Assembly (NCBI GenBank): GCA_964016885.1
Contig: CAXHJY010000115.1
Span: 1 to 64,000 of the forward strand
DNA from: Eledone cirrhosa
Lineage: Eukaryota
Direction: 5' to 3'
DNA length: 64,000 nucleotides
Positions 18,471 through 64,000 of the stretch are shown piece by piece. The notes under the pieces are model-generated. The model ran no database searches. It saw only the letters and a program-made list of their open reading frames with translations, and had not been told where the DNA came from. Numbering within the stretch: position 1 is the stretch's first letter; every line of letters starts with the position of its first letter. Made by a program: the position numbers and the translations under genes.

Positions 18471-20348
18471 ATAACTTTGAAATGTTTTGGCCAGTATTGG
18501 CCCAGGCCATGTCTAACTTAATAGCACCACCTGGCGAAGTCTTTCAATTCAGGATTTGGGCACCATGGCCCATTCGAGAAGAGAATTACTGTTTGCGGAG
18601 ACATATCCGGGTGTGGGTGGTTTGTCCGGGATTACTTGGAGGAATTTGTCCAAAGACTTCTTGAATTTTGTGTGGTCAGTTTCTGTTTTGACGTGTCCTG
18701 GTGTGATGTTGAAGAGAGCAGGGCCGATTGAGGTGAAATAATTGTGCCGTATTGTTGTTATGAGTTGCGATTTAGATTTTTGAATGGGACGGATAGCACG
18801 GGGCCCAAGCCTTGGGTGTATCTTGAAGGCGATGCCAACATCATTTGGGCAGTGATGATGGAACATTTTCCACATCATGCAGATAATATAACGCTCACGG
18901 CGACGTTGGAGTGAGTAAAGTTTCAGGTTTTCCAATCGACCCCAGTAGTCAAGGTCTGACATGCCATCTATCTTTTTCGTGATTGCCCTTTGAGGAGCTT
19001 CAAGTTTCATGATACTTTGTTTCGTGTGGGGAGACCACAGTGGACAACAGTATTCAAGGTGTGGTCGGGCGAAAGTAGAGAAGAGAAGGATAATGGTGCG
19101 GGAATCTCTCGACTGGAAGGTTCTGAGGATCCAGGAACACATTCTGCGGGCCATGTCAACTTTGCTGCTTATATGCGTGGTCCAGCTTATGTTGCTGTCC
19201 ACGGTTACTCCCAAGTCTCTGATGTTGTTTGATGCCACGAGAGTTTCCCCGGAGGGAAGGGAGTACGGGAGTTTCAGAGCATCCTCTTTTCCAAAGTGGA
19301 TCAGTTCGAATTTGTCTTCGTTCAGTAACATGTTGTTCTTTTCTGCCCATTGGGTAACAGCCAGTAGGTCTGACTGAAGGCTTATCCGGTCATCCACGCC
19401 ATTGATGACCTTTTGGAGCTTGGAATCATCAGCGAAAATTTTAATGTTGCTGTGTTTGATGATGTCAGTGATGTCATTAATATAGATGATGAAGAGAAGT
19501 GGGCCCAACACAGTGCCTTGTGGGACTCCACTACTGACTTTGGCTGGGCTTGATTTGACTCCCTCAACTACAACATGTTGGGTTCTGTTTGACAGGAAGC
19601 TCTTGATCCACTGCAGCAGCTTTCCAGTGACACCAATATTGGACAGCTTTCTCAGTAGAATGTTATGATCAACCCTGTCAAAGGCCTTGCTGAAATCAAG
19701 GTAGATAACATCAGTGTTGGAACCCTCTCCCAAGGCTCTCAAAATGTCATCAAAGTGATGCAGTAGTTGCGTCAGGCAATCCCTTCCATTACGGAATCCA
19801 TGCTGGTTGGAGTTCAGCATATTGTTACTCTCAAGGAAGTGGGTCATTCGCGATCTCACCACTCGCTCAAATACCTTAATGATATGAGAGGTGAGTGAGA
19901 TTGGACGGTAATTCACGGCAAGGGATTTGTTTCCCTTTTTGAAAACTGGGACAACAGACTGGGATAGAAGGTTTTCTGGCACATATCCAGCATCCAGTGA
20001 GTTCCGCCACAGATTGGCAAGAGGAGAAGCAAGTTGGTGTTGACACGCCTTCAAGACACAAGCAGGGAACCTATCGGGACCTACTGCTGAATTATGCTTG
20101 ATTTCCTTTATTGCCGCCAAGACATCAGGGGCGCCAAACGTTATGTCCGATAAGGTGTAATGGGGAGTAACATCGCCGATACAGCCCAGATCGGCCATAT
20201 CAGGATTGCTGAAAACAGAGCAGTATTGTTTCTGCAGTATCTCACCCATGGTTTTAGCATTGTCTTGAAGAGTGCCATTTTCATCAATTAGAGGGCCAAC
20301 AGTAGAGCCAGTGATTTTGTGTTTTTTTGCAAATGAAAAGAACACTTT
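18471..20348 (-). mobile_element. 5'-truncated CR1/L2-group LINE, copy 2, uninterrupted RT frame
   Basis: The frame from [10 protein letters not shown] (~20347) to the stop at 18549 is open and has all RT motifs (FADD). It is nearly identical to copy 1, with one ATAACTTTGA tail unit. No endonuclease domain is present because of the truncation. Confidence 0.96.
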
Positions 20349-27385: not shown

Positions 27386-27711
27386 CATATATAGAACTAT
27401 CTCAAATAAGGCTCGGAAATGACCAAAGTACTTTAAAATAAAGAAACCTTTTAAGAGCCTCAGCCCAGGGGTAAACTCCTTGTCAAGCCACCTAAATCTA
27501 GAGGGTTTAACATATATATGCAAGGTGCGTGTGCGTGTTAATCACTGAAAACAAAAGGCGAAGTTTAGTGCTTAATCAAGCATTAAACATCGTATTTTGT
27601 TTTCATTGCTCAACATATATATAGATAAATATGTGTGTACGTGTATACAATGTCTATCTTGTTTGTACATATACAAATAATAATAAACACATGAAAAATT
27701 CATCGTCTCAC

Positions 27712-29630: not shown

Positions 29631-29815
29631 GGAACGAGTAGGAACCCGACGACTGAGCTCAAGCCGTTTCGACGGCTAATTCAGAATTAGCCGTCGAAAC
29701 GGCTTGAGCTCAGTCGTCGGGGTCCTACTCGTTCCTATTACCCACTCTACTACCCTAAGTATTGAGTACTTTGGTGCGTTATGGTCCACCTGGTTCCTTA
29801 CCACATTTCCTTCGT
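29631..29815. repeat. (TA)n-flanked fold-back element carrying the 3' half of a hammerhead
   Basis: ~50-bp near-perfect inverted repeat at 29631-29733 centred on 29681-29682, containing GAAACGGCTTGAGCTCAGTCGTC. Confidence 0.8.
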
Positions 29816-29839
29816 TATATATATATATATATATATTGT

Positions 29840-32132
29840 TATACTTGGGGAGGGTCATATTTGTGTAATATTGCCAGAATTAATAACAGAACACACTCAC
29901 TGTTTGGTTGGTTTTCGCTTCTCGCTGTCTTTTATATCCGTAATCTAACTTACTCGGTCCTCAATGTTGCCATTGACTGACCGACGGTCAAAAATAATAC
30001 AGATACAATATAGACACAAACACATATATATAGTTTATTATAAATCTTTCGTTGCACATCTGCAACATCGTCAGTGGTGTTATATTTTCCTCCTGTTGTG
30101 TTGTATGTCTACGCCATTTTTTATTCAGTCTGTCTATATATTTATTTATTTATTTGCTTGTTTGTTTATTTTATTTTGTCTTCTTTGCGCATGCGTTTGC
30201 GTGTGTGTATAGTGTTATGTTTGCTGTGTGATGGGTGACTAGTGTGTGTTTATGTGCTTGTTGTTATTGTGCTTGTGTATGTATTTATTTATCTTATTTT
30301 ATTTACTTATTTATACTTCTCTTAGGTCAGTGTTGTTTGTTTGGGTGTTGTTGTTATTCCATTCATTCTTTCTGTTTAGTCTTGGTCTTCTAAGTTCTAT
30401 TTCACTGGCCTCTCTGATTTGCCTATCTGCTGGGTCATTTCTATGTTTAGATATTATTCTAATTTCTATGTTGTCTATGTTACCGTCATGTTGTTGTCTG
30501 GCATGTTCGTATAGTACTGACCCGTTTTTTCGTCCTTTTAGTTCCCCCCAGTGTTGGTCTATCCTTTCACCTATGCTACGATCTGTCTCACCTATGTATG
30601 TTGTTGTCATGTTTCTGCAAGTACCCTCTGTACATCTTATGCTATAGACTACGTTTCTAGTTTTACAGTTTATCCGGGGGTTCACCTTACATATGATACA
30701 TTTCCTATTGGTACAGTGGGTTTTCTTAAAAGGGTATGTTTTGCTGATCAGGGATTTTATGGTGGTTCCTGGCTTTTCTACCACTTTTATTTTTAAGTGG
30801 GTCTTTCTAAGGGCCTTTCTACACTGGTTAGCTAATTTCCCTCCAGGGGTGGCGTCCACAAACATGACACTCTGGTATCTCTGGTTGTCGTACCATGATG
30901 TGGCTTTCCCTATCTTATGTCTAGCCCTATCTAAGCTATTCCATGATTTGCTCCTGTATAATGGGCAAATTCCTTTCATGTCCAGTTCTATGAGGGTCTT
31001 ATACTTTTTCATGACTCCTTTGTATACTCTGACTCTGTCTCTTTGGTTGTAGCCAGAGAACTGCATGCGGTTGATGAAGTGTTGGATGTCTTTCCATTTC
31101 TGTTGGGTCGCACATGCGGGACACATTCTTCATCACTCGTACCAAATCTGCGATCAGAATATTAAACTTAGCACTACTGGACATTGCTGAGTTTTTGAGT
31201 ATCAGGTATTTGGAGGCCATGGGTTTAGCATAGTGTGAGTGGAGAATTTGGGCTCTCTCGTCTATAGTGTTAATCCAGAGTTCTGTGTCTAATACAGGTA
31301 GTCTATTGTTAGGGTGTTTGGAAGGGAAGTCGATAGTTACAGTTATACTCTGGTGTATGGAATTAGCTATCTGCTGGATGCTTTCCATCGTGCTACGTTC
31401 TAAATCAAACTTGTTAGTGCTCTCTAGTGGGGGTGTTCTTATAACTATATTGATATCGTCTACATAACGAGAGTACATGATGAGGTCTATGGAGCTTTCA
31501 TTAAGGAGATCTTTAAGTTTCCTTTCCCACCATACCATGAAAAGGTTGGCAACATCACCAGCTATGCTGACGCCGATGGCTGCTCCCTCATTTTGGGTGT
31601 AGATTTTCTCATTGAACTTAAATGTGGCCCTTTAGGGTAGTTTTGATACTAGCCCCTATTGCATGTGTGACCATTTTTCTTACCTGATCATTGTTTTGGG
31701 GGGTCCGTATAGCTTTGGTCCACCCAATCCACCTTCCCATGGGAGTCTTTTTTGCCATTGAGGTTATGGTGGGGGGTCTACCTCTTATAGGTCTACTAGG
31801 GCAGAAACATCTAAGGTCATGGCTGTCTAGGTAGTCAGTGTCGTAGGTAAGTCTAATTAGGAGGCCCAGTTCATCTGTGTCGACGTCGCAGAACTCCACC
31901 TCACTCTCAATGATCATCTCCACACATCTTTTCACAGCAAAATCAATGTTAATGGATGGGTACAGTGACACCACATCCATGCTGCCTATTATGCAGTTGG
32001 ATAGGCTCCTGTTTTTGTTGCACTCACTGATTCTGCTGAGGAGGTCCTCTGTACTTTCACATACATCTGGGGACATCTTGATTATGGGGCGTATAACCAT
32101 TGAGAGGAAGTAGGAGATCCTGTAGTTGCTAG
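29840..32132 (-). mobile_element. Penelope-like retroelement (RT + C-terminal GIY-YIG endonuclease), 5'-truncated and frameshifted
   Basis: Three consecutive minus-strand frames (31618-32132, 30999-31620, 30311-31126) give GSMDVVSLYPSI, EGAAIGVSIAG, RYVDD, a CxxxxCxxC linker and NVVYSIRC..YIGETDRSIGERIDQH. There is a hammerhead core in the 3' non-coding part, and the element sits in (TA)n. The 3' boundary is approximate. Confidence 0.93.
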
Positions 32133-32168
32133 CTATATATATATATATACATATATATATACATATAT

Positions 32169-32201
<33 letters not shown>

Positions 32202-32208
32202 TATATAC

Positions 32209-32243
<35 letters not shown>

Positions 32244-32355
32244 CATATATATACATATATATATATAGCTATTCCTCTCAATGGTTATACGCCCCATAAT
32301 CAAGATGTCCCCTGATTCTGCTGAGGAGGTCCTCTGTACTGTCACATACATCTGG

Positions 32356-32399
<44 letters not shown>

Positions 32400-32508
32400 T
32401 CTACTTTTGACTTAATATTGCTCTGGATAATATCTATCGAGCTGATTTATTGAGAAGCACATAATTCTACCATATTTAATATGTTACATTTGTGTGTGTG
32501 TGTGTATA

Positions 32509-33405
32509 CGAGGTGTGTCAGAAAACTTCCAGGACTGATGTCACAAAAGATTTATTTCAAACCCAAACTTCACACTAACAGATTTTTCTCCTTCAAAGTA
32601 ATCCCCCTGGAGTCTAATGCACTTTTCCATCCTTTTCTTCCACGCTTGCATGCACTCTCGGAAGGATTCTTCCGGGATCCTCAGCAGTTCCGTCGTCACG
32701 GCCTTTTTGATGTCGTCCACGTCTTCAAAACGGGTCCCCTCCGGGTCGTACTCGAAGATCCATAACTCATCACCGGTGATGACTGTCCCTAGCAAGCCTG
32801 GTTCGGTTTCAAGACGCTCGAGGATGTCGTGGCACACTTGCATGCGTCGACCCTTCTGGTCATCGTTCAGCAGTTTTGGCACCACCTTCGCGCAGACTTT
32901 CCGCATGTCCAAATCTGCAGTGAGAATCTTCCAGACGCTGTCCCGATTCATGCCCAGCTCATTTGCCATCAGTCGAACAGTCAGCCGACGATCGCTACGT
33001 ACCATCTGCCTGACGCGCTCAACGTTGACCTCAATCCTGGTTGTTGAGGGCCTTCCGCTCTTGGGGTCATCTTCCACGTCATCGCGTCCTTCTTTAAACC
33101 TCTTGCACCACTTAAAAACACGTGACCGTGACATCGTCTCATCTCCATACACTTGCTGCTGCAATCCCAGTGCTTCTGACGGAGTTTTCAAATCTGTTCG
33201 TTGCTCTGTGCTCATTGCTTGACGATCTGAAACAGAGGACATGTATATAAAATTATGAAGAAAACATTTTGATCGTTGAAGAGAGCTAAGATTACATTTA
33301 CATACTCCAGGGGGATTACTTTGAAGGAGAAAACTCTTAGTGTGAAGTTTGGGTTTGAAATAAATCTTTTGTGACATCAGTCCTGCAACTTTTCTGACAC
33401 ACCTC

Positions 33406-34113: not shown

Positions 34114-34526
<413 letters not shown>

Positions 34527-34555: not shown

Positions 34556-34941
34556 TATATATTGGTAAACGGAATAGAAAATGCTGACAAATTGTTCACA
34601 GTTGAAAAATGGTTTAATTAGGAATAAAAGAGTATTAGTGATTGTATGGGTTAGTATTCAGTTGTGGTTTTAAGTTTTTAAGTTTTTACCGGTTGCGCAT
34701 TTCTAAATGCTTTTCAAAAATAATTTTGAGATAGAGTGTCCGTGCGGATCAGAGCAAACAGCACGGACACTCTATCTCAAAATTATTTTTGAAAAGCATT
34801 TAGAAATGCGCAACCGGTAAAAACTTAAAAACTTAAAACCACAACTGAATACTAACCCATACAATCACTAATACTCTTTTATTCCTAATTAAACCATTTT
34901 TCAACTGTGAACAATTTGTCAGCATTTTCTATTCCGTTTAC

Positions 34942-39900: not shown

Positions 39901-42408
39901 CTACTTTTGGCACAAGGCCAGCAATTATTCCAGTGCATTACTGGTACTTTATTTTATCGACCCCGTAAGGATGAAAGGCAAAGTTAACCTCGGCGGGATT
40001 TGAACTCAGATCATAAAGGGCCATAACTCTATGGTGCAAAGCATGGCGTCCGACCCTCTACCAATACTGCCAATCCACCGCCCTATAAAATTATAATGGA
40101 AGGTTTTTAGATAAATATAAATACTTTAAAACAAACAGTTTGGTGTCATAGAACCAGCAGCAGTTTCAGGCGATTTAGTATCAAAAGGTTTAAGGTTATT
40201 TTCCCTGCTAAAACAAGGGTTAGCTTGTCTTACAGCTAGGGCTCAACTCTTTATAGTCACCTCTTACAGGGATACAGTGTACCTATTCTAAACCAGATGC
40301 ACACATTACACACATAAACAACAAAAAATAAGAACATCCTGCTGCACACATCTTAGGAACATCATGGAAGTGTGCCAAGTAATGCAGTAAAAACTTGCAT
40401 GAAACTGTCCAAGAAACGACAACAGCTTCTAATTTAGGCACAAGGCCAACAATTTTGGGGAGAGGTGGAAAAGTCGATTATATCAACCCCAGTATTTGAC
40501 TGGCCCTTTATTTTATTGAACCCCAGGAAAGATGAAATGCAGAGTTGACCTCAGCAGGATATGAACTAAGAATGCAAAGAACCAGAACAAATATCACAAA
40601 GCATCTATTTATCACTTCAGCCTATTCCCCACCATAAATAACAATGAAAACCTAAACCATTTTCCATTATTTTCTTAACAGATTATTATTGCTAAAGGAG
40701 CAGCCATTGAGATTGGAGCTGACGTTTATGTTCGTGTTGTGAATGTTCAGAAGTCTGTAGTTTGTGTCCAAGATCACAACCATTCTGTAAGACTACTTGT
40801 ACAACTGACCTTGGTCAAGCTATTAACACAGAAAACCTTGGAAGAAATAGAACAACAGAAGCATTCTATTTCAGCTATTGTGCAGGTATGTTACATACAT
40901 ATATATATATATATCATTATTTAAGATCCGCTTTCCCTGCTAGCAAGGGTTGGACAGGTCTCTATATATAGAGAGAGAGAGATGTGTGGCTATGCTGACT
41001 TATAACTTGCAGATGCGAGTTACAAGTCAGTATAGCCACACATCTCTCCATCTCTCTTAAGTTTTGAAAATCATGAAACTTGTGAAACTGGTAAAGTTAT
41101 AAGTTGCTGTAAATAAACCTTAAAGACTCCAATTACAGTTCCAACTTCTTTTTCCTATATTTTTACCCAAGTGGTATATATTAAAAAAATCTTACTTTCA
41201 AATATATATATATATATATATATATCTATATCCAAAATTAAGATAGATTAAAAGAATTCAATCAGAATTATGGGTGTCATTCCTTAACGGAATGTGCCAT
41301 ATCGCCCGGAAAATAAGCTCTAGGACTTTGTAAGTATGAGCATTTTAATAACTAGGAATTGATCAACATATATATAAATAAATATAAACATGAAAAATCA
41401 CAGGAGATAATTTTTACAAGCGTGTAACCACGCATGGCTAGTAGGTAACAAATAAATAAAGTTAACTAGAACTCCAAAATATATACCTTTTAATGATTGC
41501 CTTGCTCGTACAGAACTGTTTCCGACTTGGTTTCTACGGCTGGATGTCCTTCCTAACGCCCACCACATTTATAGTGTGGACTGAGAACTTTGGTGGGGCA
41601 GGTGTATGGTGATTGGGGAGGTATAGGGGCATGTGTGAGGAGCAGAGTGTGAGGACATGGAAGGGTATGGAGGCGAATACTGAGTTCAAATCCTGCCAAG
41701 GTTAGCTTTGCCTTTCATCCTTATATGGGTCAATAAAATTGAAGTACCAGTCACACACTGAGGTCAATTTAATCAACTTTCTCCTCCCCTAAAATTATTG
41801 GCAATGAACCTAAATCAGAAACCATTATTATCGACCCTTTACATTCAGAATTCAAATCCTGCTGAGGTTAGCTTTGCCTTTCATCCTTATGGGGTCAATA
41901 AAATGAAGTACCAGTCACACACTAGGGTTGATTTAATTGATTTTCCTCTCCTTTAAAATTATTAGCCTTGATTTAAAAAATTAATTAACAAACAAAAACA
42001 TAGGCAGTGACTTTTGTTAGAAATATGGTAATGAAAGTGTTTAATTATATGATAACATTTTCTTTCAGGATGAATGTAACAAGACAACATTTTGCTGGGG
42101 AGTTGAGATTAGTCGCTGTGAACTGTAAGTAATAGAAATATTTTACCAGTTGTTCCCATTAACAGTCAGATAAGGAGACAAAACAACTGTTTTAAGGCCT
42201 TATGGGTTCTATGATAGACTTCATAATTATGTGGGGTCCTTTTTGTGACTGTGTTTAATGGCAAGAGAAGTACTTAGCGAAAAGTAAACCCTTTAATTGG
42301 CATTTGTTGACCTGGAGAAGGCTTTTGACAGAGTCTCCCATTCCATTATCTAGTGGGCTCTTAGAAAACTAGGAGTAGATAAGTGGTTCGTGAGAGCAGT
42401 TACAAGCC

Positions 42409-45400: not shown

Positions 45401-48400
45401 TGCAAGGCAGTGTGTCAATGCAAATCAGGATGTTGTTGGAGATAAATGTGTCCGGGATGATGCCGGTGTACTTAGTGTCACGAATAATCAGAAAAAGGAG
45501 GCCTGGAAATGTCATTATGAGAGACTGATGAATGTGGAGAACGAATGGGAGAGAGAGAAATTACCCTTGGTGGATCCGACAGAGGGACCAGCTATTGAAA
45601 TTGATGAATATAGGGTCCAAGAGGTGATTAGGGAAATGAAAAATGGTAAGGCTGCCGGACCATCGGGAATAGTTGCTGAGATGCTGAAGGCATCAGGGGA
45701 CGTAGGCACTAAACTGGTTGCACGCATCATCAATCAGGCTATATATGGTGGTGTCATACCCAAAGACTGGTGCAGCAGTATTCTCATAAATTGCTACAAA
45801 GGTAAAGGGGATGCTTTGGAGAGGAGCAATTATAGGGGTATAAAACTGATAGATCAGGTTATGAAAGTGGCAGAAAGGATTTTAGCACAACTAATTAGAG
45901 AAAGGGTCAAACTAGATGAGATGCAGTTTGGTTTTGTGCCTGGGAAGAGTACAACAGATGCCCTCTTCTTGGTGAGACAATTGCAAGAGAGGTTCTTAGA
46001 GAAGAATAAGCTACTATACTTAGCCTTTGTTGACCTAGAGAAGGCCTTTGATAGGGTACCCCAATCTGTCATCTGGTGGTCCCTAAGGAAGCTAGGTGTT
46101 GAGGAATGGCTTGTGAGGACAGTGCAAACTTTGTACAGAGGTACTCTCAGTAAAGTCAGGGTAGGAATGGAGTTTAGTGAGGAATTCCAGATACAAGTAG
46201 GCGTACATCAGGGTTCGGTCCTCAGCCCGCTCTTGTTCATTATAGTCCTCCAAGCCATAACAGAGGAGTTTAAGACTGGCTATCCATGGGAACTTCTCTA
46301 CGCTGACGATCTGGTTCTGAGAGCAGAATCAGTAGAGGAGCTAGAGAATAAATTCTGGCTATGGAAACAGCAGTTGGAAGCAAGAGGACTGAGAGTGAAT
46401 CTAGCTAAGACAAAAGTGTTGATGAGTAGAAAAGAGGACAAAACCCTGATTCCGTGAGGGAAATGGCCATGTTCGATATGCAGAAAAGGAACTGGCATAA
46501 ATTCTATAAAATGCACACAATGCAGATCCTGGGTACACAAGAGATGTAGCGGGATAGCAGGCAAACTAACAGGTAGGGAGAAATATGTATGCAGTAGATG
46601 TACAGGGAAATTAGACAGTAGAAGTTGCATTGATAGACACATTTTTCAAATGCAGGAGGGCGCTATAGAAGTGGTGGATAGCTTCCGGTACCTAGGAGAT
46701 CAGATTAGCATGGGAGGAGGGTGTTCCGAGGCCATAGTATCTAGAATAAGGACGGGTTGGAAGAAGTTTAGGAAGCTGCTTCCTCTGTTGACGAAGAAGG
46801 GTTTCTCCCTGCGTACGAAAGGCCGGTTGTATGAAGCCTGTGTGAGGAGCGCGATGCTGCATGGTAGTGAGACATGGGCAGCAACTGCAGAGGATATGCG
46901 ACGGCTGGAGAGAAATGAGGCAAGCATGCTCCGTTGGATGTGCAGTGTAAATGTGCGTGAACGACCCAGCATAAATGTGTTGAGAGAGAAACTGTGTCTG
47001 AGACGGATAGAATGTAGTGTACGCGAGAGGAGACTGAGGTGGTATGGACATGTGATGCGCATGGAGGATGACCGATGGGTGAAGAAGTGCCAGGAATTGC
47101 CAGTTGAAGGAAGACGTGGTAGAGGTAGACCACAAAAAACATGGGCGGAGGTGGTGAGAACAGACCTCAGATCATTGAAGCTCACGGTGGAGATGACGAG
47201 GGACCGTGATGAGTGGAGAGATGCTGTGCTGAATAAGACCCGTCCCACCCTTGCAAGCAGGGAAAAGCGGACGTAAAATGATGATGATGATATATATTCA
47301 ATTGAATCTGACTCTAATCATTGTATTTCTTTTTAAGTGGTAAACTTTATCTATTACCTTGTTTAACCATCTGATCCTTGGATGCTTTCAACAGAATCCA
47401 CTTTGCTGCTAGCATTTGGGCCAGACCTCCAGTTTGAGGATAACTTTATCCTTACACCTTTAGATTCTCTTGAAAAATAGGTTATCATGGCCACTGCCCA
47501 CCCTCCCCCTCCTTCATTAAACAGTAATAAGAAATAAAAAGGTTTTTTTCACATATTTTTCTATATTTTTTTAGGTCTCATATAAAAGTCCTTGTTGCAC
47601 CTTCTGATAAAAAGGTTCCTTTACCTAAATGTCTCCAGCCACCAGGTTATACAGATTCCAAGTATGAAGGTCTCTTTGACAATCTACCTGTTCCTTTCCA
47701 GCAGCTGGCTAATGCAGTCGTGAACAAAACAAAAGGTGACCCCATACTCACATTATTCGTTAATGCACATGCACATACATACATCATGCACACACATACA
47801 TCATGCAACACACACATGCAGACAACAGTCAGACTCATAAGTAATGGTTCCTTAATTTTGCCCAACCACTGAGTGGAAAGTTTGATGTTTCAACCTTTCA
47901 GTGACAATAGTTCTAAAGAAATTCACTGTTTCAATTAATGAAGATTTACCAAAATTATTGATTAATTCAATACTAAGATAATATCGTTCTTATACAAAAT
48001 TACGGTGAAAGATTTCAATTTATTTTAAACACCTTTATAATGAGCAGGTTTTTTTTTTTTCATAGAACCAGGGACAGGTTTTGTTTGGAGCTGATATCAA
48101 AAGGTTTAACTCTTTAGCATTTACATTACTCTATTTTTCCTATTGTATTTTTGTGGAAAAAGCTCTAATTTACATAATTATCTCACATAATATTGAATCT
48201 ATGAGATTTTGATGTTATTTATTTTGAGAACAATACCTTAACATTGGTATGATCAGCCAGTTATGGCCGGTTTGAACAGAAAGAGATGAGAGAATTCTGG
48301 ACGGATACAGCTGGTTTAAATGCTAAAGGGTTAAGCAAAAATATTTTAAATTCCAAACTACTGAGCAACATTTTGATATAGATGTCAACAAAACATCCAT

Positions 48401-49379
48401 GCTCCTGCATAGCGTAGGAGGAATGCTGCTCACAAGACACTTGCCCAAGATGCGACACAGTGAGACGGAACCCATAAACCACATGATTACAAAACAAATT
48501 CCTTAACCACACAGCCAGAATTACATCTATTTCTCGTTGTATGTTATTGCTGAATTAACTTGGTTTATTATTTCTATCAGAGAGTTATTCCAACCAAACA
48601 ACAGATATACCAAAGACATCTCCTACAAGAGAAGATGAGGAAAAATATTCAGAAATAACTAAAGACCCCTTTGATGTGATCATCTTTAAGCTACAGTCAG
48701 TGTTGGATAAAGATTTGGTGCAGTCTGTGAATTCAATTTACCAATTCCATATTGTTGGTGAGATTAATAAGAAGTTCATACTAGATCTCAAAAAGGGTAT
48801 GTATTTACAATTTTGTTTCATCTTTATTCTGTTTAAAACATGTTGTTGTTGTTGTAGTATTGGTCATAATCCCACTAATGTCAGTTTAACCCTTTTTTGA
48901 CACCTTTTGGGATGAGTTCTACAACACAAAACTGTTTATCTTAAAGTGTTTATATTTATCTAAAAACCTTCCCTCACAATTTTATGGAAGAACATTAACC
49001 CTTTAGCATTTACATTACTCTATATATACCAAAACTCTCTGCAATGGGTGTGAAGGATGATCTTTTTAATAATGAGAAAGTTGGTTACATTACTAAATCC
49101 CTTGAAATTCTTGGTAGAGAAAAAATTAATATTTATCAATGTCTCTTTTGTAATATATCTTCAGGTTGTGGGTCTGTGAAATTTGTTGAAACTACAGAAA
49201 ATCCTGATTGTGCTGACGTTAGTTTGACACTTAACTACAAGGACTTTATATCATTAATACATGGGCAACTGAAACCTTTAGATGCCTACAAAAATGGTTG
49301 TTTGAAAATAACTGGAAATATGTTGGCAGCGCTGAGGATTGAACTTATATTAAACAGATTACGAGCTGTCACTTTGTAG
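36939..49379 (+). CDS. STOML1: Stomatin-like protein 1 (SPFH/band-7 domain + C-terminal SCP2 sterol-carrier domain), 9 coding exons, 423 aa
   Basis: Exons 36939-37104, 37863-37966, 38465-38531, 39507-39589, 40682-40885, 42069-42124, 47575-47735, 48581-48796 and 49165-49379. All are GT-AG with matching phases and total 1272 nt. Motifs include LFITMPVSLWFSFK, YERIVIFRLG..KGPG, LPWID..VDMRTKAFNVPPQ, WGVEISRCEL and the SCP2-type GQLKPLDAYKNGCLKITGNM. Confidence 0.93.
37310..37665 (-). mobile_element. tRNA-derived SINE
   Basis: Minus strand has a tRNA-like head (GCATGGCTTAGTTGTTAAAG..TTTGATTCTTGG) and a CTCAGCTGTAGAAATGAG body. Confidence 0.7.
38696..38803 (+). ncRNA. Hammerhead ribozyme motif with extended stem II (intronic, sense to STOML1)
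   Basis: TTCCT CTGAAGA [ATCTATTGGGTAC-AATTCTACGGT..ACCGTAGAATT..GTACCTAAGGGAT] GAAAC ACCAT GTA ATGAA. The core is intact and helix I has one mismatch. Confidence 0.7.
38865..39300 (-). mobile_element. RTE LINE 3' end fragment with (GAT)n tail
   Basis: Homologous to 42984-43530, including CTGGATGCCCTTCCTAACACCAACC. Confidence 0.8.
39895..40084 (-). mobile_element. Full-length SINE (GCCTTTCATCC core family)
   Basis: Reverse complement of 61588-61782. Confidence 0.85.
41680..41970 (+). mobile_element. Two tandem partial SINEs (GCCTTTCATCC core family)
   Basis: Core repeated twice. Confidence 0.8.
42255..42412 (+). mobile_element. Decayed RTE RT fragment
   Basis: Encodes QEKYLAKSKPL/LAFVDLEKAFDRV-like sequence with disruptions. 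Confidence 0.75.
42462..42872 (-). mobile_element. Duplicate of the RTE 3' UTR and (GAT)n tail
   Basis: Near-identical to 42984-43392, including the same internal ~112-bp tandem duplication. Confidence 0.85.
42984..44790 (-). mobile_element. RTE-clade LINE, 5'-truncated and frameshifted (subfamily 1)
   Basis: EKAFD, GVHQGSVLSP, YADD, a Cys-rich insert WPCSVC..CPKC..VHKRC..CGRC, and RRLHWYGHVMR..GRPRKTW. The tail appears as (CAT)n on the plus strand. Confidence 0.95.
45000..47290 (+). mobile_element. RTE-clade LINE, 5'-truncated (subfamily 2, copy 1)
   Basis: ORFs 45132-46457 and 46650-47276 share one frame split by a premature TGA at 46455 (TCA in copy 2). Motifs NYRGIKL, QFGF, YADD and a (GAT)n tail. 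Confidence 0.96.
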
Positions 49380-50585: not shown

Positions 50586-50665
50586 GATGTATGTATGTAT
50601 ATATATATATATATATGTGTGTGCGTGTATGTATCTATATATATGTGTGTGCATGTATGTATGTA

Positions 50666-52315
50666 ATGAAAAATGGTAAGGCTGCCGGACCATCGGGAAT
50701 AGTTGCTGAGATGCTGAAGGCATCAGGGGACGTAGGCACTAAACTGGTTGCACGCATCATCAATCAGGCTATATATGGTGGTGTCATACCCAAAGACTGG
50801 TGCAGCAGTATTCTCATAAATTGCTACAAAGGTAAAGGGGATGCTCTGGAGAGGAGCAATTATAGGGGTATAAAACTGATAGATCAGGTTATGAAAGTGG
50901 CAGAAAGGATTTTAGCACAACTAATTAGAGAAAGGGTCAAACTAGATGAGATGCAGTTTGGTTTTGTTCCTGGGAAGAGTACAACAGATGCCCTCTTCTT
51001 GGTGAGACAATTGCAAGAGAGGTTCTTAGAGAAGAATAAGCTACTATACTTAGCCTTTGTTGACCTAGAGAAGGCCTTTGATAGGGTACCCCGATCTGTC
51101 ATCTGGTGGTCCCTAAGGAAGCTAGGTGTTGAGGAATGGCTTGTGAGGACAGTGCAAACTTTGTACAGAGGTACTCTCAGTAAATTCAGGGTAGGAATGG
51201 AGTTTAGTGAGGAATTCCAGATACAAGTAGGAGTACATCAGGGGTCGGTCCTCAGCCCGCTCTTGTTCATTATAGTCCTCCAAGCCATAACAGAGGAGTT
51301 TAAGACTGGCTATCCATGGGAACTTCTCTATGCTGACAATCTGGTTCTTATAGCAGAATCAGTAGAGGAGCTAGAGAATAAATTCTGGCTATGGAAACAG
51401 CAGTTGGAAGCAAGAGGACTGAGAGTGAATCTAGCTAAGACAAAAGTGTTGATGAGTAGAAAAGAGGACAAAACCCTGATTCCATCAGAGAAATGGCCAT
51501 GTTCGATATGCAGAAAAGGAACTGGCATAAATTCTATAAAATGCACACAATGCAGATCCTGGGTACACAAGAGATGTAGCGGGATAGCAGGCAAACTAAC
51601 AGGTAGGGAGAAATATGTATGCAGTAGATGTACAGGGAAATTAGACAGTAGAAGTTGCATTGATAGACACATTTTTCAAATGCAGGAGGGCGCTATAGAA
51701 GTGGTGGATAGCTTCCGGTACCTAGGAGATCAGATTAGCATGGGAGGAGGGTGTTCTGAGGCCATAGTATCTAGAATAAGGACGGGTTGGAAGAAGTTTA
51801 GGGAGCTGCTTCCTCTGTTGACGAAGAAGGGTTTCTCCCTGCGTACGAAAGGCCGGTTGTATGATGCCTGTGTGAGGAGCGCGATGCTGCATGGTAGTGA
51901 GACATGGTCAGCAACTGCAGAGGATATGCGACGGCTGGAGAGAAATGAGGCAAGCATGCTCCGTTGGATGTGCGTGAACGACCCAGCATAAATGTGTTGA
52001 TAGAGAAACTGTGTCTGAGAGGGATAGAATGTAGTGTACGGGAGAGGAGACTGAGGTGGTATGGACATGTGATGCGCATGGAGGATGACCGATGGGTGAA
52101 GAAGTGCCAGGAATTGCCAGTTGAAGGAAGACGTGGTAGAGGTAGACCACGAAAAACATGGGCGGAGGTGGTGAGAACAGACCTCAGATCATTGAAGCTC
52201 ACGGTGGAGATGACAAAGGACTGTGACGAGTGGAGAGATGCTTTGCTGAATAAGACCCGTCCCACCCTTGCAAGCAGGGAAAAGCTGGCGTATGATGATG
52301 ATGATGATGATGATG
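50666..52315 (+). mobile_element. RTE-clade LINE, 5'-truncated (subfamily 2, copy 2)
   Basis: Nearly identical to 45637-47290. YADD is mutated to YADN, there is a 10-bp deletion/frameshift near 51972, and it has a (GAT)n tail and a long flanking duplication. Confidence 0.96.
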
Positions 52316-54621: not shown

Positions 54622-56769
54622 ATGGCAAATGTATCTATATTTGGAATCATCTGTGAAAAGAAAACAAATGTTTCTCTTCTTTACGCCAAACACACTGTTT
54701 CAATTGATGGATTTAGTGCACATGTTAACATCGAGGCTGAATATATAAATGAAAGCCAACACAAGACAGAAGCTAAGTTTGTTTTCCCTGTCGAAGAAGA
54801 CAGTGCTGTGTATAAATTTGAAGCTAAAATTGGTGATGTTCATTTGATTGCCAAATCTAAAGACAAAGATGTTGCCCAGAAGGAGTACAAAGAAGCTGTA
54901 GAAAAAGGACAGTCAGCTATTTTGTTGCGTGAAACAAGCACATCTGGGGATATATTTGAATATAGTTTAGGTAATATCCCACCAAAACAAAAGATCAATC
55001 TAAAAATATGCCTCGTTTCTGAACTTTCATGCGAAGTTGATGGAGCAGTAAAGTTTTATACACCTTTTGTTCTTAATCCCAGGTTTGGTCTTTTACCTAA
55101 AGATGAAAATTACCAAAAAGCACCAAAGCCAAAGGAATTTAGTTTCAATGCCTCAATCAAGTGGAATTCACAAATTAAAGATGTCATATCAATACATCCT
55201 ATTAAGGTTGAATATCAGGATAATAAGTCTCATGCTACTGTGAGAATGACAAAGGAGTTTAATTTTGAGAAAGACATCCTTCTCCATATTTACTATGAAG
55301 ATGTGAAGAAACCACAAGTGATTCTGGAGAAAGGTGATAGAAATGCTAAAGGAATGTTTTCTAAAGATATTATGATGATAAATCTATTTCCAAATCTTCC
55401 CCAAGTGAACTCTTTACCAGCTAATGACTACATCTTTATTATTGACCGGTCTGGAAGCATGAGTGGAGAGAAATTTGAAGCTGCTAAAGATACTTTGTTA
55501 CTTTTCTTGAAAAGTCTACCCCTGGGGTGCTCCTTTAACATTATAACTTTCAATAATTACTTCGAAGTTTTGTTCAAAGATGGAAGCCGAGAATATAATG
55601 AAGGTTCTCTGAATGAAGCATTGGAATTCCAGAATAATGTTTACGCAGCTGGTGGAACTGAAATGTTCAAAGCTATTAAATCCCTCTCTGATAAAAAAAC
55701 AGCTGACAATATTTATCGCCAAGTATTCCTGATAACTGATGGGGAAGTCTACAACACACATGAAATAATTCAATTGGTCAAAAAGCAAGCATACAACACT
55801 CGGTACTTCACGGTCGGTATTGGATCTGGAGCTTCTACAGAATTAGTGAAAGGTATTGCTCGAGCCGGGAGAGGTCAAGCAGAGTTTGTGATGGCAAATG
55901 ATGACCTTAAGGCAAAAGTTATACATTTATTGAAATTGTCAATGCAGCCATTTGTATCTTCAGTTTGTTTCTCTGCTGAAGTTAGTGACAGCAACAAAAA
56001 GTTACCCTTCATTTCAGTTCCAGAAAACATTCCTTGTATTTTCACCGAAGAAAGATTCATTATTTATCTAGTTTTTCCAGAAATTACGTCTGACTGTCAA
56101 AATGTTAAACTGAATCTTTCTGGTAAAATTGGTGAATCAGTATTTTCACTTGACTTTGAAACTAATTTGTTGAATCAGAGAGACAACGAAATGAAAATAC
56201 ACCGTCTTTGTGTGAGAAAGAAAATACAAGAACTGGAACTAAAAGAAGATTTAGGGAAAGACAATGGCGTAAAATCTGAGATTATTGATCTAGCTACAAC
56301 TGCTAACTTGGTTTCAAGGTACACAAGTTTTATTGGGTCGGAGAAATCATATTCAGTGAAACCCACGACTCGTGAGACTACATCCAAAAATTTTGATACT
56401 GGAAAATTTGGAGAGTTGCATAAATTTGACATAATAAAATTCAACTTCGAGAGTAAAGACAGACTGAAATCTTTGCTTGTCTTACAAACCTTTTCTGGAT
56501 ACTGGGACCTGAATGAGTTTTTAGCAACCATTTTGAAAGAATCCCTCGATCAACTTAAGCGGACAAAACCAGCAGTAAACGACAATATCTGGGCTACAGC
56601 ACTTGCAATTGTTTTCTTCAGAGAAAAATTAACATCACAAAAACATGAATGGGAGTTAATTGTTGATAAAGCTGTACGTTGGCTGAAGACTCAGAATACA
56701 CAAACAATTGGATTTGATCAAATAATGACTGACGCTTCACACGTGTTGAAAACAAAAGTATACACATAA
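54622..56769 (+). CDS. VWA5A: von Willebrand factor A domain-containing protein 5A-like (VIT + VWA), 715 aa, single coding exon
   Basis: VIT domain (EAKFVFPVEEDSAVYKFEA..SLGNIPP), VWA MIDAS FIIDRSGSM, GGTE, ITDG, TVGIGSGAS, and C-terminal LQTFSGYW..WATALA..EWELIVDKAVRWL. An acceptor TTTTATAG lies at 54608 and AATAAA overlaps the stop. Confidence 0.93.
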   Translation: MANVSIFGIICEKKTNVSLLYAKHTVSIDGFSAHVNIEAEYINESQHKTEAKFVFPVEEDSAVYKFEAKIGDVHLIAKSKDKDVAQKEYKEAVEKGQSAILLRETSTSGDIFEYSLGNIPPKQKINLKICLVSELSCEVDGAVKFYTPFVLNPRFGLLPKDENYQKAPKPKEFSFNASIKWNSQIKDVISIHPIKVEYQDNKSHATVRMTKEFNFEKDILLHIYYEDVKKPQVILEKGDRNAKGMFSKDIMMINLFPNLPQVNSLPANDYIFIIDRSGSMSGEKFEAAKDTLLLFLKSLPLGCSFNIITFNNYFEVLFKDGSREYNEGSLNEALEFQNNVYAAGGTEMFKAIKSLSDKKTADNIYRQVFLITDGEVYNTHEIIQLVKKQAYNTRYFTVGIGSGASTELVKGIARAGRGQAEFVMANDDLKAKVIHLLKLSMQPFVSSVCFSAEVSDSNKKLPFISVPENIPCIFTEERFIIYLVFPEITSDCQNVKLNLSGKIGESVFSLDFETNLLNQRDNEMKIHRLCVRKKIQELELKEDLGKDNGVKSEIIDLATTANLVSRYTSFIGSEKSYSVKPTTRETTSKNFDTGKFGELHKFDIIKFNFESKDRLKSLLVLQTFSGYWDLNEFLATILKESLDQLKRTKPAVNDNIWATALAIVFFREKLTSQKHEWELIVDKAVRWLKTQNTQTIGFDQIMTDASHVLKTKVYT

Positions 56770-57170: not shown

Positions 57171-58662
57171 TATTTTGTATATATATTTTTTATAACTTTT
57201 ATGCATCGCTTTGACATGAATTTTTTTTTTTTTCATAATAAATTTCCAGGTAACATATTTTCAAATTCTGAAGTAAAAATTGCAAAATAAATCATTGACA
57301 AAAAAGTTATTACTCTATTTCTCGGCGTCAAAGACTCTACTTTTTTCCCCTAAAATAAGTATAAAAAATCTACCCTGCGTCCTGGAGGCTGAAGGTTGTT
57401 TATTATTTTTTTTCAAATTTTTGATTGTCAAAATTAGGGAAATTCGGTAAGTTTTATAATGGTAAAAGTATGTAAGGACTGACATGTGATAAAAGACTAT
57501 AAGAAACACTGTTCACCGAGTGGGATTGGGTTTTTTGTTTCTGATAAGACTCCAAGGTGTGTGTGTTTGAGTGCACGCATGTGTGTATGCAAGCATGTGC
57601 GTGCATGTATATGTGTGAAAGTACTTACACTCATGCAATGGATATGCAATATGTTTCATTATTTATTTATTAACTGAAGCAGGTAACTATAGTTACATTG
57701 ATACCTGTCGTCTTGATTACACCACACATCAGTAAGTAAGTTAATGCATCATCAACCTCTTTATCTGTTTAGTAAGAAATGTGTGTGTGTAGGTCTGCGT
57801 ATCTACATGTGTGTGTGTTTCTGTCTATATATGTGTATGTTTGTGTAGGTAGGTCTGTGTACATGTAAATGTGTGTGTATATTTATATATAAGTGTGTGA
57901 GTATATATTTATATGTAGGTCTGCGTATCTATACGTGTGTGTGTGTGTGTGTGTCTTCATTTATTGAACACTTTCCCATGCAGCGTTAAGATGTAAGATA
58001 TGCAAGAAGTTTGATTAACTATACAGCTAGCTGAATCAACAGTTACAATACTTGTCGTGTCCTTAGCACAGGCGACAGAGCATTGGATAGAATGTCTTGC
58101 CATATTTGTTTCATTTCTCTGCACTCCGAGTTCAAATCCCACCAAGGTCAACATTCTAAATAAACTACACCAACATACACAGCATACCAAGGTCCCCAGA
58201 CTCAGACACAGAGTTTGTCACCCTCTTTTTCACCCGTTGCTTAATAGTCCTTGCTCTTTCCCTCCTTTTCTTCACATTTACGGCATTTATAGTCCTTTCC
58301 TCTACTTTCCTATACAGCCAGATCTGAAAAATTTATAAGCAGGGGTGGGGGATTATTATCCAAGACCCGAGAGTACTCATTCTAAAACACCAATCCACCC
58401 TATTCTCTCCTCTTCCACCATGAGTCTTCCTCTATTTATTCTGTCTCTGCTATTGAGAATTTAGTTTTGTCTGATGTTTCTGTGAGTACACAGGTGAAAC
58501 TCCAGTGTGACAAGGCTAACCACTTAGCCACAATAACGAATATATATAAATAGTCCTATACGAGCGAGACATGGTCACCCGATCAATCTTGCCTCAAGTG
58601 GGATAATTTCTGTCTAACTCATGCTACCGTGGAAGATTCATGAGGATGATGATATATATATA

Positions 58663-58892
58663 TCATCATCATCGTTTAACTTCCATCTTCCACGCTAGCA
58701 TGGGTTAGACGGTTTTGTTCCATTTGATGCGGGAATGGTTGGGAGACCATGTCTCGCTCGCTCGCACAAAAGCGTCTCTGGTAGGTTTTTTTTACAGCTG
58801 GTTGCCCTTCCTAACACCAATCACATTTACAGTGTGGACTGGGAGCCTTTTCACCGTGTGGCCTACACGGCCACCTTACAGTGTGGACTGGT
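58663..58892 (-). mobile_element. RTE 3' end fragment; an oppositely oriented fragment lies at ~58560-58650
   Basis: (CAT)n CGTTTAAC..CCACGCTAGCATGGGTTAGACGG, with an inverted partial copy immediately upstream. Confidence 0.75.
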
Positions 58893-61094: not shown

Positions 61095-61166
61095 GTCGTC
61101 AAGTATGAAATTTGTATAATTTTTTTTTTCTACAAATTTCTACAAATTTCATACTTGACGATCCAA
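61091..61166. mobile_element. Minimal Tc1/mariner-type MITE, copy 2
   Basis: Same TIRs as copy 1 with a shorter poly-T spacer. Confidence 0.75.
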
Positions 61167-61587
61167 TGTGTGTGTGTGTGTGTATGTGTGTGTGTGTGCA
61201 CTCACTATCCATTTAATTATACCCTGAAGTTAGCACACACACATACACAATCTAAGCACACGTACACAGAAAGACTGTAAAATCACGTACACAACATTTT
61301 TTATCCTCGCCCGTTTGTTGGAGATCCCAGCGAAGTCGTATATATATATTGGCAGTATCACTAACATAGCATGACTCATAATAAAGGTGTATATGAAGTT
61401 ATATTACTATATTTATGTACAATGAACACATATATATAAGTCTCGCTATGAGTATTCTAAACTATTATCATGTTGTCACAGTTATTGAAATAGCTGTGAC
61501 ATGATCACAACTTAAAACATTCATAGCTAGACTTATGAGTGTTTATTGTACATAAACATGTTATATACCTTTATTATCAAGGTAGAA

Positions 61588-62887: not shown

Positions 62888-63223
62888 ATGTATACCTTCA
62901 TATAAACCTTAATTATTAAGGTAGCTATTATGTATGTTCATGATGTTCATGTTTATATACACACTAGCCGTCAACATCTGAAATCCAGTCAACTAATATA
63001 CAGACGTCATCCGCTCTATTGTTCCAATAGCTAATACACGTGCTAATGTTTATAAACATCCTCTCCATTTAGCATCTATACACCGTTTATTTAATATATA
63101 TATATTTAGTTATGTAATAAACAACATAAGATAATTATTTCATTTACCAGTGGTTTCTTGAAAGCAGATATATCTGTTTTCAGTCGTCAGAATATATCTG
63201 CTTTCAAGAAACCACTGGTAAAT

Positions 63224-63686
<463 letters not shown>

Positions 63687-63705
63687 ATATATAGATAAGT
63701 TATTC

Positions 63706-63961
63706 CGTATTGAATCGGAGGTAACCACAGTAAGTAAGGTACTCAATACATAGCAGAGTATAAAAGTTTTAATATAGAAGAGCTTCCACAGGACTAGAAC
63801 TGTTTCATTCGAGAGAAATCATCAGGGTTTCCTGATGATTCCTCCCGAATGAAACAGTTCAAATCCTGTAGAAGCCATTTCTATATAAAATATTTATACT
63901 CTGCTATGTATTGAGTACCTTACTTACTGTGGTTACCCTTGATTGAACCCAGGATAAACTT
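63706..63961. mobile_element. Fold-back hammerhead-bearing element in (TA)n (family A, copy 2)
   Basis: ~120-bp imperfect inverted arms around 63826-63831, homologous to 34186-34368. Confidence 0.82.
63826..63876 (+). ncRNA. Type I hammerhead ribozyme
   Basis: GGTTTC CTGATGA TTCCTCCCGAAT GAAACAG TTCAAATC CTGTA GAAGCC. Intact core, 6-bp helix I with one G-U, weakened helix II and a GUA triplet. Confidence 0.72.
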
Positions 63962-64000
63962 ATATTATATATATATATATATATATTATATATTATATAT

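Follow-up and report, generated by a model that had tools for sequence, protein, structure and literature searches.

Head-to-head hammerhead-bearing repeats in (TA)n of the octopod Eledone cirrhosa, likely a decaying Penelope-like insertion stub

Introduction

Insertions of Penelope-like elements (PLEs) have been described as carrying an inverted, 5'-truncated copy and a tail at one end, with a bias towards (TA)n in Neptune and Naiad (Craig et al., 2021, PMC8557442). Head-to-head inverted pLTRs with palindromes at their junctions are reported for PLEs as well and ascribed there to self-priming (Arkhipova et al., 2013, PMC3846280), and how the tandem and inverted structures form is named as an open matter in PMC8557442. 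The PLE protein of Anolis cuts and extends both strands and starts reverse transcription at two sites; it is predicted to be a dimer, and hammerhead cleavage was not needed in vitro (PMC11167929). A literature search on "twin priming" with Penelope gave nothing relevant among the matches listed.

Minimal and atypical type I hammerheads (HHRs) associated with PLEs are described by Cervera and de la Pena (2014, PMC4209133), who report for Schistosoma pairs of minimal HHRs on opposite strands, 100-700 bp apart. Natural hammerhead variants with U10.1-U11.1 are known (Perreault et al., 2011, PMC3088659), and HHR_Amex2 of the axolotl cleaves better as a dimer (Cervera and de la Pena, 2020, PMC7229834). 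Retrozymes have been proposed to be pLTR derivatives (bioRxiv 10.64898/2026.07.22.740005).

Here we analyse a palindrome near the end of a 64,000-nt stretch of the Eledone cirrhosa genome (contig CAXHJY010000115.1, positions 1 to 64,000, called the window below). We read it, with a probability of roughly 0.65, as two copies, head to head in (TA)n, of a 130-nt repeat that bears a hammerhead and is abundant; the pair is likely a Penelope-like pLTR stub that was built anew at insertion and is now decaying. Like the insertion unit of endonuclease-positive PLEs as described in PMC3846280 and PMC8557442, it has head-to-head arms, a short palindromic junction, unequal 3' ends, a (TA)n target as in Neptune and Naiad, and a hammerhead within ~130 nt of the 3' end. 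Unlike the unit described there, the octopod palindrome has neither an ORF between its arms nor an identified autonomous partner, its extension measures 76 nt and not 30-40 nt, and the arms of one copy (copy 2) are unequally diverged.

The hammerhead motif shares with those described in PMC4209133 the type I topology, a self-complementary loop 3 suited to dimers, dispersed high-copy occurrence and close pairs on opposite strands. It differs in helix II, which is short (3 bp) and opens with U10.1-U11.1, theirs being long with G10.1-C11.1, and in a helix III of 4 bp with an 8-nt loop, where theirs is minimal. HHR_Amex2, a natural type I hammerhead reported in PMC7229834, has the same U-U at its helix II base; it lies in 330-350 bp tandem repeats expressed as circles, whereas the octopod copies are solo or inverted and ~130 nt long. 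By these likenesses the octopod element would be an ordinary one, head-to-head stubs with hammerhead motifs being a described product of Penelope-like retrotransposition. No earlier description of the octopod family was found in the literature, a search that did not extend to Repbase and Dfam entries or to paper supplements, which may list cephalopod motifs.

Materials and Methods

The family data come from public reads and contigs in 4 of 23 matching runs, the small shares of organisms D-L being left out. Sequences were matched at 80% likeness, and the counts are of reads or unitigs, not of loci or haplotypes. The read sets may derive from species related to that of the window, and no listed piece spans the locus of copy 2. 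The family tables hold the best 40 of 142 variant rows, 15 of 158 joints and 24 of 28,620 pieces. Positions in reads are given in window coordinates of copy 2.

Results

Two copies of one element in the window

The element occurs twice in the window, as the following features:

34186-34236, minus strand: copy 1 short arm (51 nt), which with the spacer forms a complete minus-strand hammerhead (34192-34242) with helix I AGATTC/GAATCT
34237-34240, no strand: copy 1 spacer GAAT, closed by a 3-bp CAG/CTG overlap
34241-34367, plus strand: copy 1 long arm (127 nt), with a 76-nt 3' extension that the short arm lacks; (TA)n flanks the insertion on either side
63616-63698, no strand: (TA)n target, left flank of copy 2, read from the sequence
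63699-63825, minus strand (element sense): copy 2 left arm, with hammerhead core and GUG triplet, lacking the 5' strand of helix I
63826-63831, plus strand: copy 2 junction spacer GGTTTC, which is the helix I 5' strand of the plus-strand hammerhead
63826-63876, plus strand: type I hammerhead motif of copy 2, with helix I of 6 bp, CUGAUGA, U10.1-U11.1, helix II with 2 of 3 bp, and GAAA
63832-63959, plus strand: copy 2 right arm, diverged, with 20/129 differences from the left arm and rare changes at 63841, 63861 and 63863
63960-64000, no strand: (TA)n target, right flank of copy 2, continuing to the window end

Copy 2 thus reads (TA)n, left arm, GGTTTC, right arm and (TA)n, a palindrome of ~260 bases whose arms (127 and 128 nt) stand head to head; the first G of the spacer also pairs within the palindrome, giving a 1-nt overlap. 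CTGATGA begins at 63832 on the plus strand and at 63825 on the minus strand. Copy 1, at 34186-34367, consists of (TA)n, the 51-nt arm, GAAT, the 127-nt arm and (TA)n, with CTGATGA at 34241 (plus) and 34236 (minus); its arms differ at 1 of 51 sites. The preliminary description of this DNA had reported the same element a second time, with arms inverted just 5' of CTGATGA, and both statements are borne out directly by the two copies, which lie 29.6 kb apart. Its arms of about 120 bp fit copy 2 and not copy 1 (51 and 127 nt), and the copy 2 arm begins near 63699 instead of 63706. All blastn matches to an arm longer than 22 nt in the window were the four arms of copies 1 and 2.

An inverted 5'-truncated copy joined head to head, as in PLE pLTRs, is seen in copies 1 and 2 and in reads. 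The (TA)n insertion bias of Neptune-type PLEs is seen in both copies, in each of which both 3' ends adjoin (TA)n; no target site duplication is readable within (TA)n at the insertions.

Surroundings of the two copies

(TA)n and (TATG)n abound in the window, which also contains LINE fragments that encode RT; positions 1-26500 are otherwise mostly (TA)n/(TATG)n satellite. An intronless VIT-vWA gene (VWA5A-like; 54622-56766, plus strand) encodes a protein 79% identical to those of Octopus bimaculoides and O. sinensis and 69% identical to that of Argonauta, and an ORF with an SCP2 sterol-transfer domain lies at 48999-49379 (plus strand). There are two recent duplicate pairs, 2209-3828 with 18477-20101 (99%) and 45635-47268 with 50665-52285 (98%), the latter being an RT-encoding LINE fragment. 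The segment 32541-33399, which by its translation we take to be a short mariner-like transposase remnant, has ~98-nt inverted ends at 32516-32613 and 33304-33399.

A further element of the window bears on the enzyme:

30311-32130, minus strand: broken Neptune-like Penelope-like ORF, with an RT YVDD motif, a C-X4-C-X2-C linker and a GIY-YIG endonuclease

This ORF, the one RT and GIY-YIG reading frame of the window, lies between (TA)n tracts, is Neptune-like by motif and is not homologous to the arms. Its three pieces had no Pfam match at E<=0.001, and its three homologues are unnamed or uninformative. Its presence means that the genome has at some time encoded an enzyme of this kind. The element (29830-32400, minus strand) is interrupted by a stop codon within its RT region and changes frame ahead of the linker and endonuclease; a hammerhead-like CTGACGA-helix-GAAA stands at 30074 in its 3' UTR, and its 5' end is rearranged, (TA)n separating short duplications, both direct and inverted, at 32273-32349.

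Several other palindromes were observed. One in (TA)n at 29631-29830 has a short arm of 50 nt and a long one, and its sequence corresponds to a hammerhead 3' half (GAAAC, a 6-bp helix III with a GAGCTC loop, and GUC); its junction (29631-29735) appears by eye to lie inside helix II, neither arm having CUGANGA, and its extension shares GTATTGAGTAC with the family of copies 1 and 2, possibly a common recognition motif. Another, at 63117-63248 in (TA)n, 450 nt from copy 2, has on its minus strand CTGACGA, a long helix II, GAAA, the palindromic ACCACTGGT and GUA. Its arms end just 5' of the core and in the helix II loop respectively, so that the junction, read by eye, lies between CTGACGA and the helix II loop. 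Both of these hammerhead-like palindromes are joined elsewhere than copies 1 and 2. At 34568-34938, 200 nt from copy 1, there is a near-perfect palindrome of 371 nt (97%) with a 15-nt spacer, in which no canonical hammerhead core was recognised. Older palindromes, with 74-87% arm identity, lie at 27536-27615, 40970-41057, 58561-58760, 61099-61158 and 61393-61574.

The hammerhead motif and its helices

Each arm runs from CTGATGA and a T into helix II (3 bp, loop of 4 nt), then through a further T and GAAA into helix III (4 bp, loop of 8 nt), and on to the triplet and the 3' strand of helix I. The core CUGANGA/GAAA/NUH stands in order on the plus strand of copy 2, at 63832-63838, 63851-63854 and, after the helix III of 4 bp with its 8-nt loop, GUA at 63868-63870. 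Helix I of this arm, GGTTTC/GAAGCC, pairs at 6 of 6 positions, one U-G included, as had been noted before; such pairing has a chance of ~0.001 for a random 6-mer at the local base composition. The opposite arm was likewise correctly described, with a GTG triplet (63787-63789) and just 2 of 6 helix I pairs. The minus-strand helix I of copy 1 (AGATTC/GAATCT) pairs 6/6. Helix III of the copy 2 plus arm is intact (4/4) and helix II has 2 of 3 pairs (3/3 in the other arms), T>C at 63841 leaving a C-A mismatch in the stem of this "complete" arm. The minimum free energy fold of the arm adopts another register, with A9 paired into helix II. A9 is a core residue of the hammerhead, and a pairing that takes it away from the core was rejected as the active fold.

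At the start of helix II all four arms have a U10.1-U11.1 mismatch, the G10.1-C11.1 pair being absent; this is a known natural variant (PMC3088659, PMC7229834). Rfam hammerhead models were absent from the seven matches at E<=10 in 63690-63975; the whole window gave 410 Rfam matches, and the 150 listed are, with no exception, miRNA models on hairpins and microsatellites.

Between copies 1 and 2, two of the six helix I pairs are changed on both sides (A-U to G-C and A-U to U-G). The covariation proposed earlier for helix I is visible in these paired changes, which from two sequences are not significant, 134 of 500 shuffles reaching the same. The picture of varying loops around an invariant core needs correction, the CTAG of loop III being kept in the family and the helix II stem being hit too in the complete arm of copy 2. 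Nor is the core specially invariant: among the three long arms, 1 of 13 core positions is variable vs 14 of 82 in the 3' part (Fisher p=0.68), and element positions 65-106 are as constant as the core (1/42 variable). Among genomic copies the core does vary, A6 being G at 63835 in 201 of 832 RAD reads.

An abundant family with two types of helix I

Matching sequences numbered 15,787 contigs in run X1 (organism A), 12,390 contigs in X3 (organism B), 42 in X6 (organism C) and 8,741 RAD reads in X21 (organism A). The family is therefore abundant, and in reads and contigs most copies are not of the symmetric palindrome form. Searches beyond these runs gave 120 loci for a 14-nt element pattern in viral contigs, taken as chance, two matches for a 20-nt pattern in metagenomes and one for the core pattern in GTDB genomes, these three all without the rest of the element.

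In X21 the run-level consensus, which is not haplotype-resolved, pairs AGATTC with GAATCT: the loose ends at the arm 5' end have the plus-strand consensus AATCTGG, which places CCAGATTC ahead of CTGATGA, and at 63783 the letter is of GAATCT type in 1451 of 1958 reads. In X3 the consensus, again at run level and not haplotype-resolved, pairs GGCTTTC with GAAGCC (loose-end consensus AAAGCC; 3' strand GAAGCC), the GAATCT-type letter making up 0.04% of depth. X1 has AAAGCC as its consensus by contig count, yet 75% of its depth is of GAATCT type, a mix which would reflect old diverse copies together with a young collapsed subfamily. Among the rows listed for hammerhead positions 1-45 of the left arm, common variants are confined to loop II and the 3' strand of helix I, the stems of helices II and III being free of them. 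Because this abundant family shows both helix I types, the hammerhead structure has probably been kept in its source lineages, as judged from sequence. The earlier proposal of selection on ribozyme structure is thus plausible for those lineages and unsupported for the copy 2 palindrome.

In RAD reads that lack an inverted arm, loose ends also have ATTC preceded by CAG. The possibility that copy 1 helix I is a junction artefact, AG being shared with the inverted arm, was rejected, since such loose ends show AGATTC without an inverted arm. They suggest, in addition, a ~12-nt conserved stretch upstream of helix I of the AGATTC type that ends in CAG, a possible splice acceptor; compare Drosophila virilis, in which an intron is described as ending at helix I (PMC4209133).

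The junction is a hot spot and not a fixed point

Thirteen of the 24 pieces listed cross the centre of the palindrome, and eight do so with at least 31 letters per side (three from X1, four from X3 and one from X6), in a listing (24 of 28,620) weighted towards the longest pieces and so towards palindromes. AATCATCAG also appears, a few bases 5' of CTGATGA, in a mixed consensus of 620 RAD reads. The spacer letters differ, with two alternatives each at 63827 and 63828 (24-37% of ~450 reads), and the listed junction pieces carry 0-16 gaps. At 63826, 1,336 RAD reads leave the element into non-element sequence (depth there 2,103), and 254 X1 and 155 X3 contigs have loose ends at the same position, into sequence on neither arm.

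Among the joints (15 of 158 listed, with the letters between them, and matched at 80% likeness, where joints between reads can stem from other repeats), arms complete to the core or helix I are joined to partners starting at element positions 71-76 (63826 to 63902 and 63907; 63810 to 63903; 63806 to 63906). One joint is the mirror case (63760 to 63845), and in another both arms are cut inside the ribozyme (63810 to 63864). Scattered joints and loose ends together make the hammerhead 5' edge a hot spot where one arm tends to end; the junction is not a fixed point. The recurrence that had been claimed for it stands near CTGATGA, in 8 of the 24 listed pieces and three organisms, and fails elsewhere: the spacer is variable, further junctions are scattered, and no inverted arm adjoins many of the 5' ends. 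The related claim of one complete ribozyme per palindrome fits the two window copies, each with exactly one helix I, and not those junctions that leave no complete ribozyme. A complete ribozyme on one arm is a by-product of that arm reaching helix I, not a rule.

At the other end of the element, short and long 3' ends coexist, with loose ends into (TA)n at 63765 (404 reads) and 63890 (436 reads); TA-run loose ends occur at element 3' ends in all four runs. The AT-rich positions 59-76 of the element are a frequent 3' end (into TA runs) and also a frequent start of the truncated partner arm. A tandem joint from 63826 back to 63762, a unit of ~78 nt, is carried by 51 X21 RAD reads, a head-to-tail arrangement of the family that resembles retrozymes.

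The palindrome does not move as a unit

Copy 2 left is near the common family type and differs from copy 1 right at 10 of 127 positions, and from its own partner, copy 2 right, at 20 of 129; the third comparison among the three long arms gives 22/130. The corresponding branch lengths are 4 (copy 2 left), 16 (copy 2 right) and 6 (copy 1 right), which disfavours equal age of the copy 2 arms at this one locus (binomial p=0.012). Transposition of the palindrome as a unit, for which a comparison of arm-to-arm with copy-to-copy divergence had been proposed as a check, is contradicted by that comparison. The uniform copies, fixed ends and centre, and movement as a whole of a MITE or fold-back unit were not found in the two copies: spacers and arm lengths differ, and the arms are more diverged than the copies. 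For these reasons we consider the palindrome to be rebuilt at each insertion.

Copy 2 is decaying and its ribozyme is predicted to be sequestered

The letters that distinguish the right arm of copy 2 are rare in the family, and copy 2 is a decaying copy. The family allele is found in 734 of 968 RAD reads at 63841, 3034 of 3219 at 63861 and 2965 of 3220 at 63863, and makes up 98%, 98% and 93% of X1 depth, respectively. The changes at 63861 and 63863 destroy the CTAG of loop III in this arm; the family loop III keeps TTCTAGTC, which contains this self-complementary CTAG, and the predicted gain from self-dimerization is -10.0 kcal/mol for it vs -1.9 kcal/mol for the copy 2 plus arm. The GUG of the left arm is rare as well, a cleavable A replacing G (63787) in 2719 of 2776 RAD reads. 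Since most X1 depth crossing 63828 has C (83%, 81 related contigs), the U-G pair of helix I at this position is likely a later change, derived from C-G.

With the arms head to head, read-through RNA in either direction contains the antisense arm first. In a nearest-neighbour model without tertiary terms, the full transcript loses ~55 kcal/mol when forced into the hammerhead (-159.1 vs -104.5 kcal/mol), and the nascent prefix loses 51 kcal/mol. The copy 2 hammerhead is thus predicted to be a passenger, its ribozyme being zipped shut in a long hairpin by the opposite arm. Selection on the complete plus-strand ribozyme is not supported for copy 2, in view of the rare changes in helix II and loop III and of this predicted sequestration by the antisense arm.

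Discussion

In the mechanism that we propose, a Neptune-type RT-GIY-YIG protein would cut (TA)n, and both sides of the cut would prime reverse transcription, starting at the 3' end of the element RNA. The two cDNAs would grow towards each other until a microhomology of 1-3 nt joins them, CAG/CTG for copy 1 and a single G for copy 2. Often one cDNA would reach the helix I 5' strand and the other would be trimmed at CTGATGA (at CAG/CTG in copy 1) or further in. The hammerhead, of type I, with U-U at the helix II base and a CUAG loop suited to dimers, would likely be kept in the source elements, where we infer that it self-cleaves; in read-through RNA of the palindrome the antisense arm would come first and the predicted long hairpin would follow. 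The unequal arms of copy 2 suggest that two different templates were joined at insertion, although at this one locus gene conversion could also produce the asymmetry. Membership of the family in the PLEs is likely and rests on structure, not on a found partner: no autonomous element carrying the family terminal sequence was found, and the Neptune-like element of the window has no blastn match to an arm. Against a likeness to the PLE tail, the 3' extension has 76 nt and the two classes of 3' ends of the family lie ~70 nt apart, vs the 30-40 nt tail described for PLEs.

Within the same Penelope-like origin, a single template could instead have yielded each palindrome, by folding back and priming itself at the mini-hairpin 5' of CUGAUGA, through cDNA snap-back or the antisense self-priming proposed for PLE junction palindromes (PMC3846280), with the asymmetry of copy 2 as a later gene conversion of the left arm. 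The single difference in 51 sites between the copy 1 arms, a copy 1 junction that is a natural 3-bp stem with a 4-nt loop, and the recurrence of symmetric junctions in three organisms all suit such priming. What makes it unlikely in our judgement is that the copied arm of copy 1 (127 nt) is longer than its source arm (51 nt), that the copy 2 junction is a 1-nt overlap with no predicted DNA hairpin, that the copy 2 branch lengths are 4 vs 16 (p=0.012), and that partner arms starting at 71-76 seem to have no evident hairpin. Gene conversion with a later deletion could rescue snap-back; double priming is favoured because the arms of copy 2 are unequally diverged and the partner arm of copy 1 is the longer. 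A palindrome mobile as such, whose junction is fixed and which is under selection to keep one active ribozyme, is largely refuted and very improbable. Both window copies do join just 5' of CTGATGA with exactly one helix I each, and 8 of 24 listed pieces bridge the same point, but the spacers differ, many 5' ends lack an inverted arm, arm-to-arm divergence (20/129) exceeds that between copies (10/127), the complete arm has lost one helix II pair and its CTAG loop, and the hairpin is predicted to beat the hammerhead by ~55 kcal/mol.

It is also improbable that the family is a non-LTR retrozyme, a tandem type I hammerhead repeat spread via circular RNA, with palindromes as occasional inverted integrations. 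The U-U helix II base as in axolotl HHR_Amex2 (PMC7229834), a loop III predicted to favour dimers and the one tandem joint (51 RAD reads) point that way; yet neither of the two window copies is tandem, the unit has 78-130 nt vs ~300-350 nt for described repeats, and the 3' ends, instead of being permuted, stand fixed next to (TA)n. The two explanations partly coincide, since retrozymes are themselves proposed to be pLTR derivatives (bioRxiv 10.64898/2026.07.22.740005). Scarcely credible, finally, is the insertion of a young copy at the head of a solo copy that was older and already diverged, or a fold-back artefact of assembly. The longer branch of the right arm (16 vs 4), the in vitro cutting by a PLE protein of its own pLTR junction (PMC11167929) and the fact that no read set spans the copy 2 locus speak for one or the other; a two-step origin, however, needs its second insertion to fall exactly where palindromes made in one step are joined, arms with 20/129 differing columns cannot be a fold-back read, and short-read contigs from three organisms bridge such junctions.

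Returning to the preferred reading of a Penelope-like stub built by double priming, a tentative extension is that Penelope inverted repeats arise from two RNAs, possibly held together by hammerhead dimerization via the CUAG loop, each copied from one side of the cut and the two joined at the ribozyme 5' edge. Copy 2, with arms of different lineage, might then, as tentatively, be a fossil of such joining. This very abundant family has subfamily markers on each arm, so that counting alone could separate fold-back on one template from the joining of two. If the two-RNA reading is true, the pairing of arm subfamilies in many octopus palindromes would decide how the inverted structures of these elements form.
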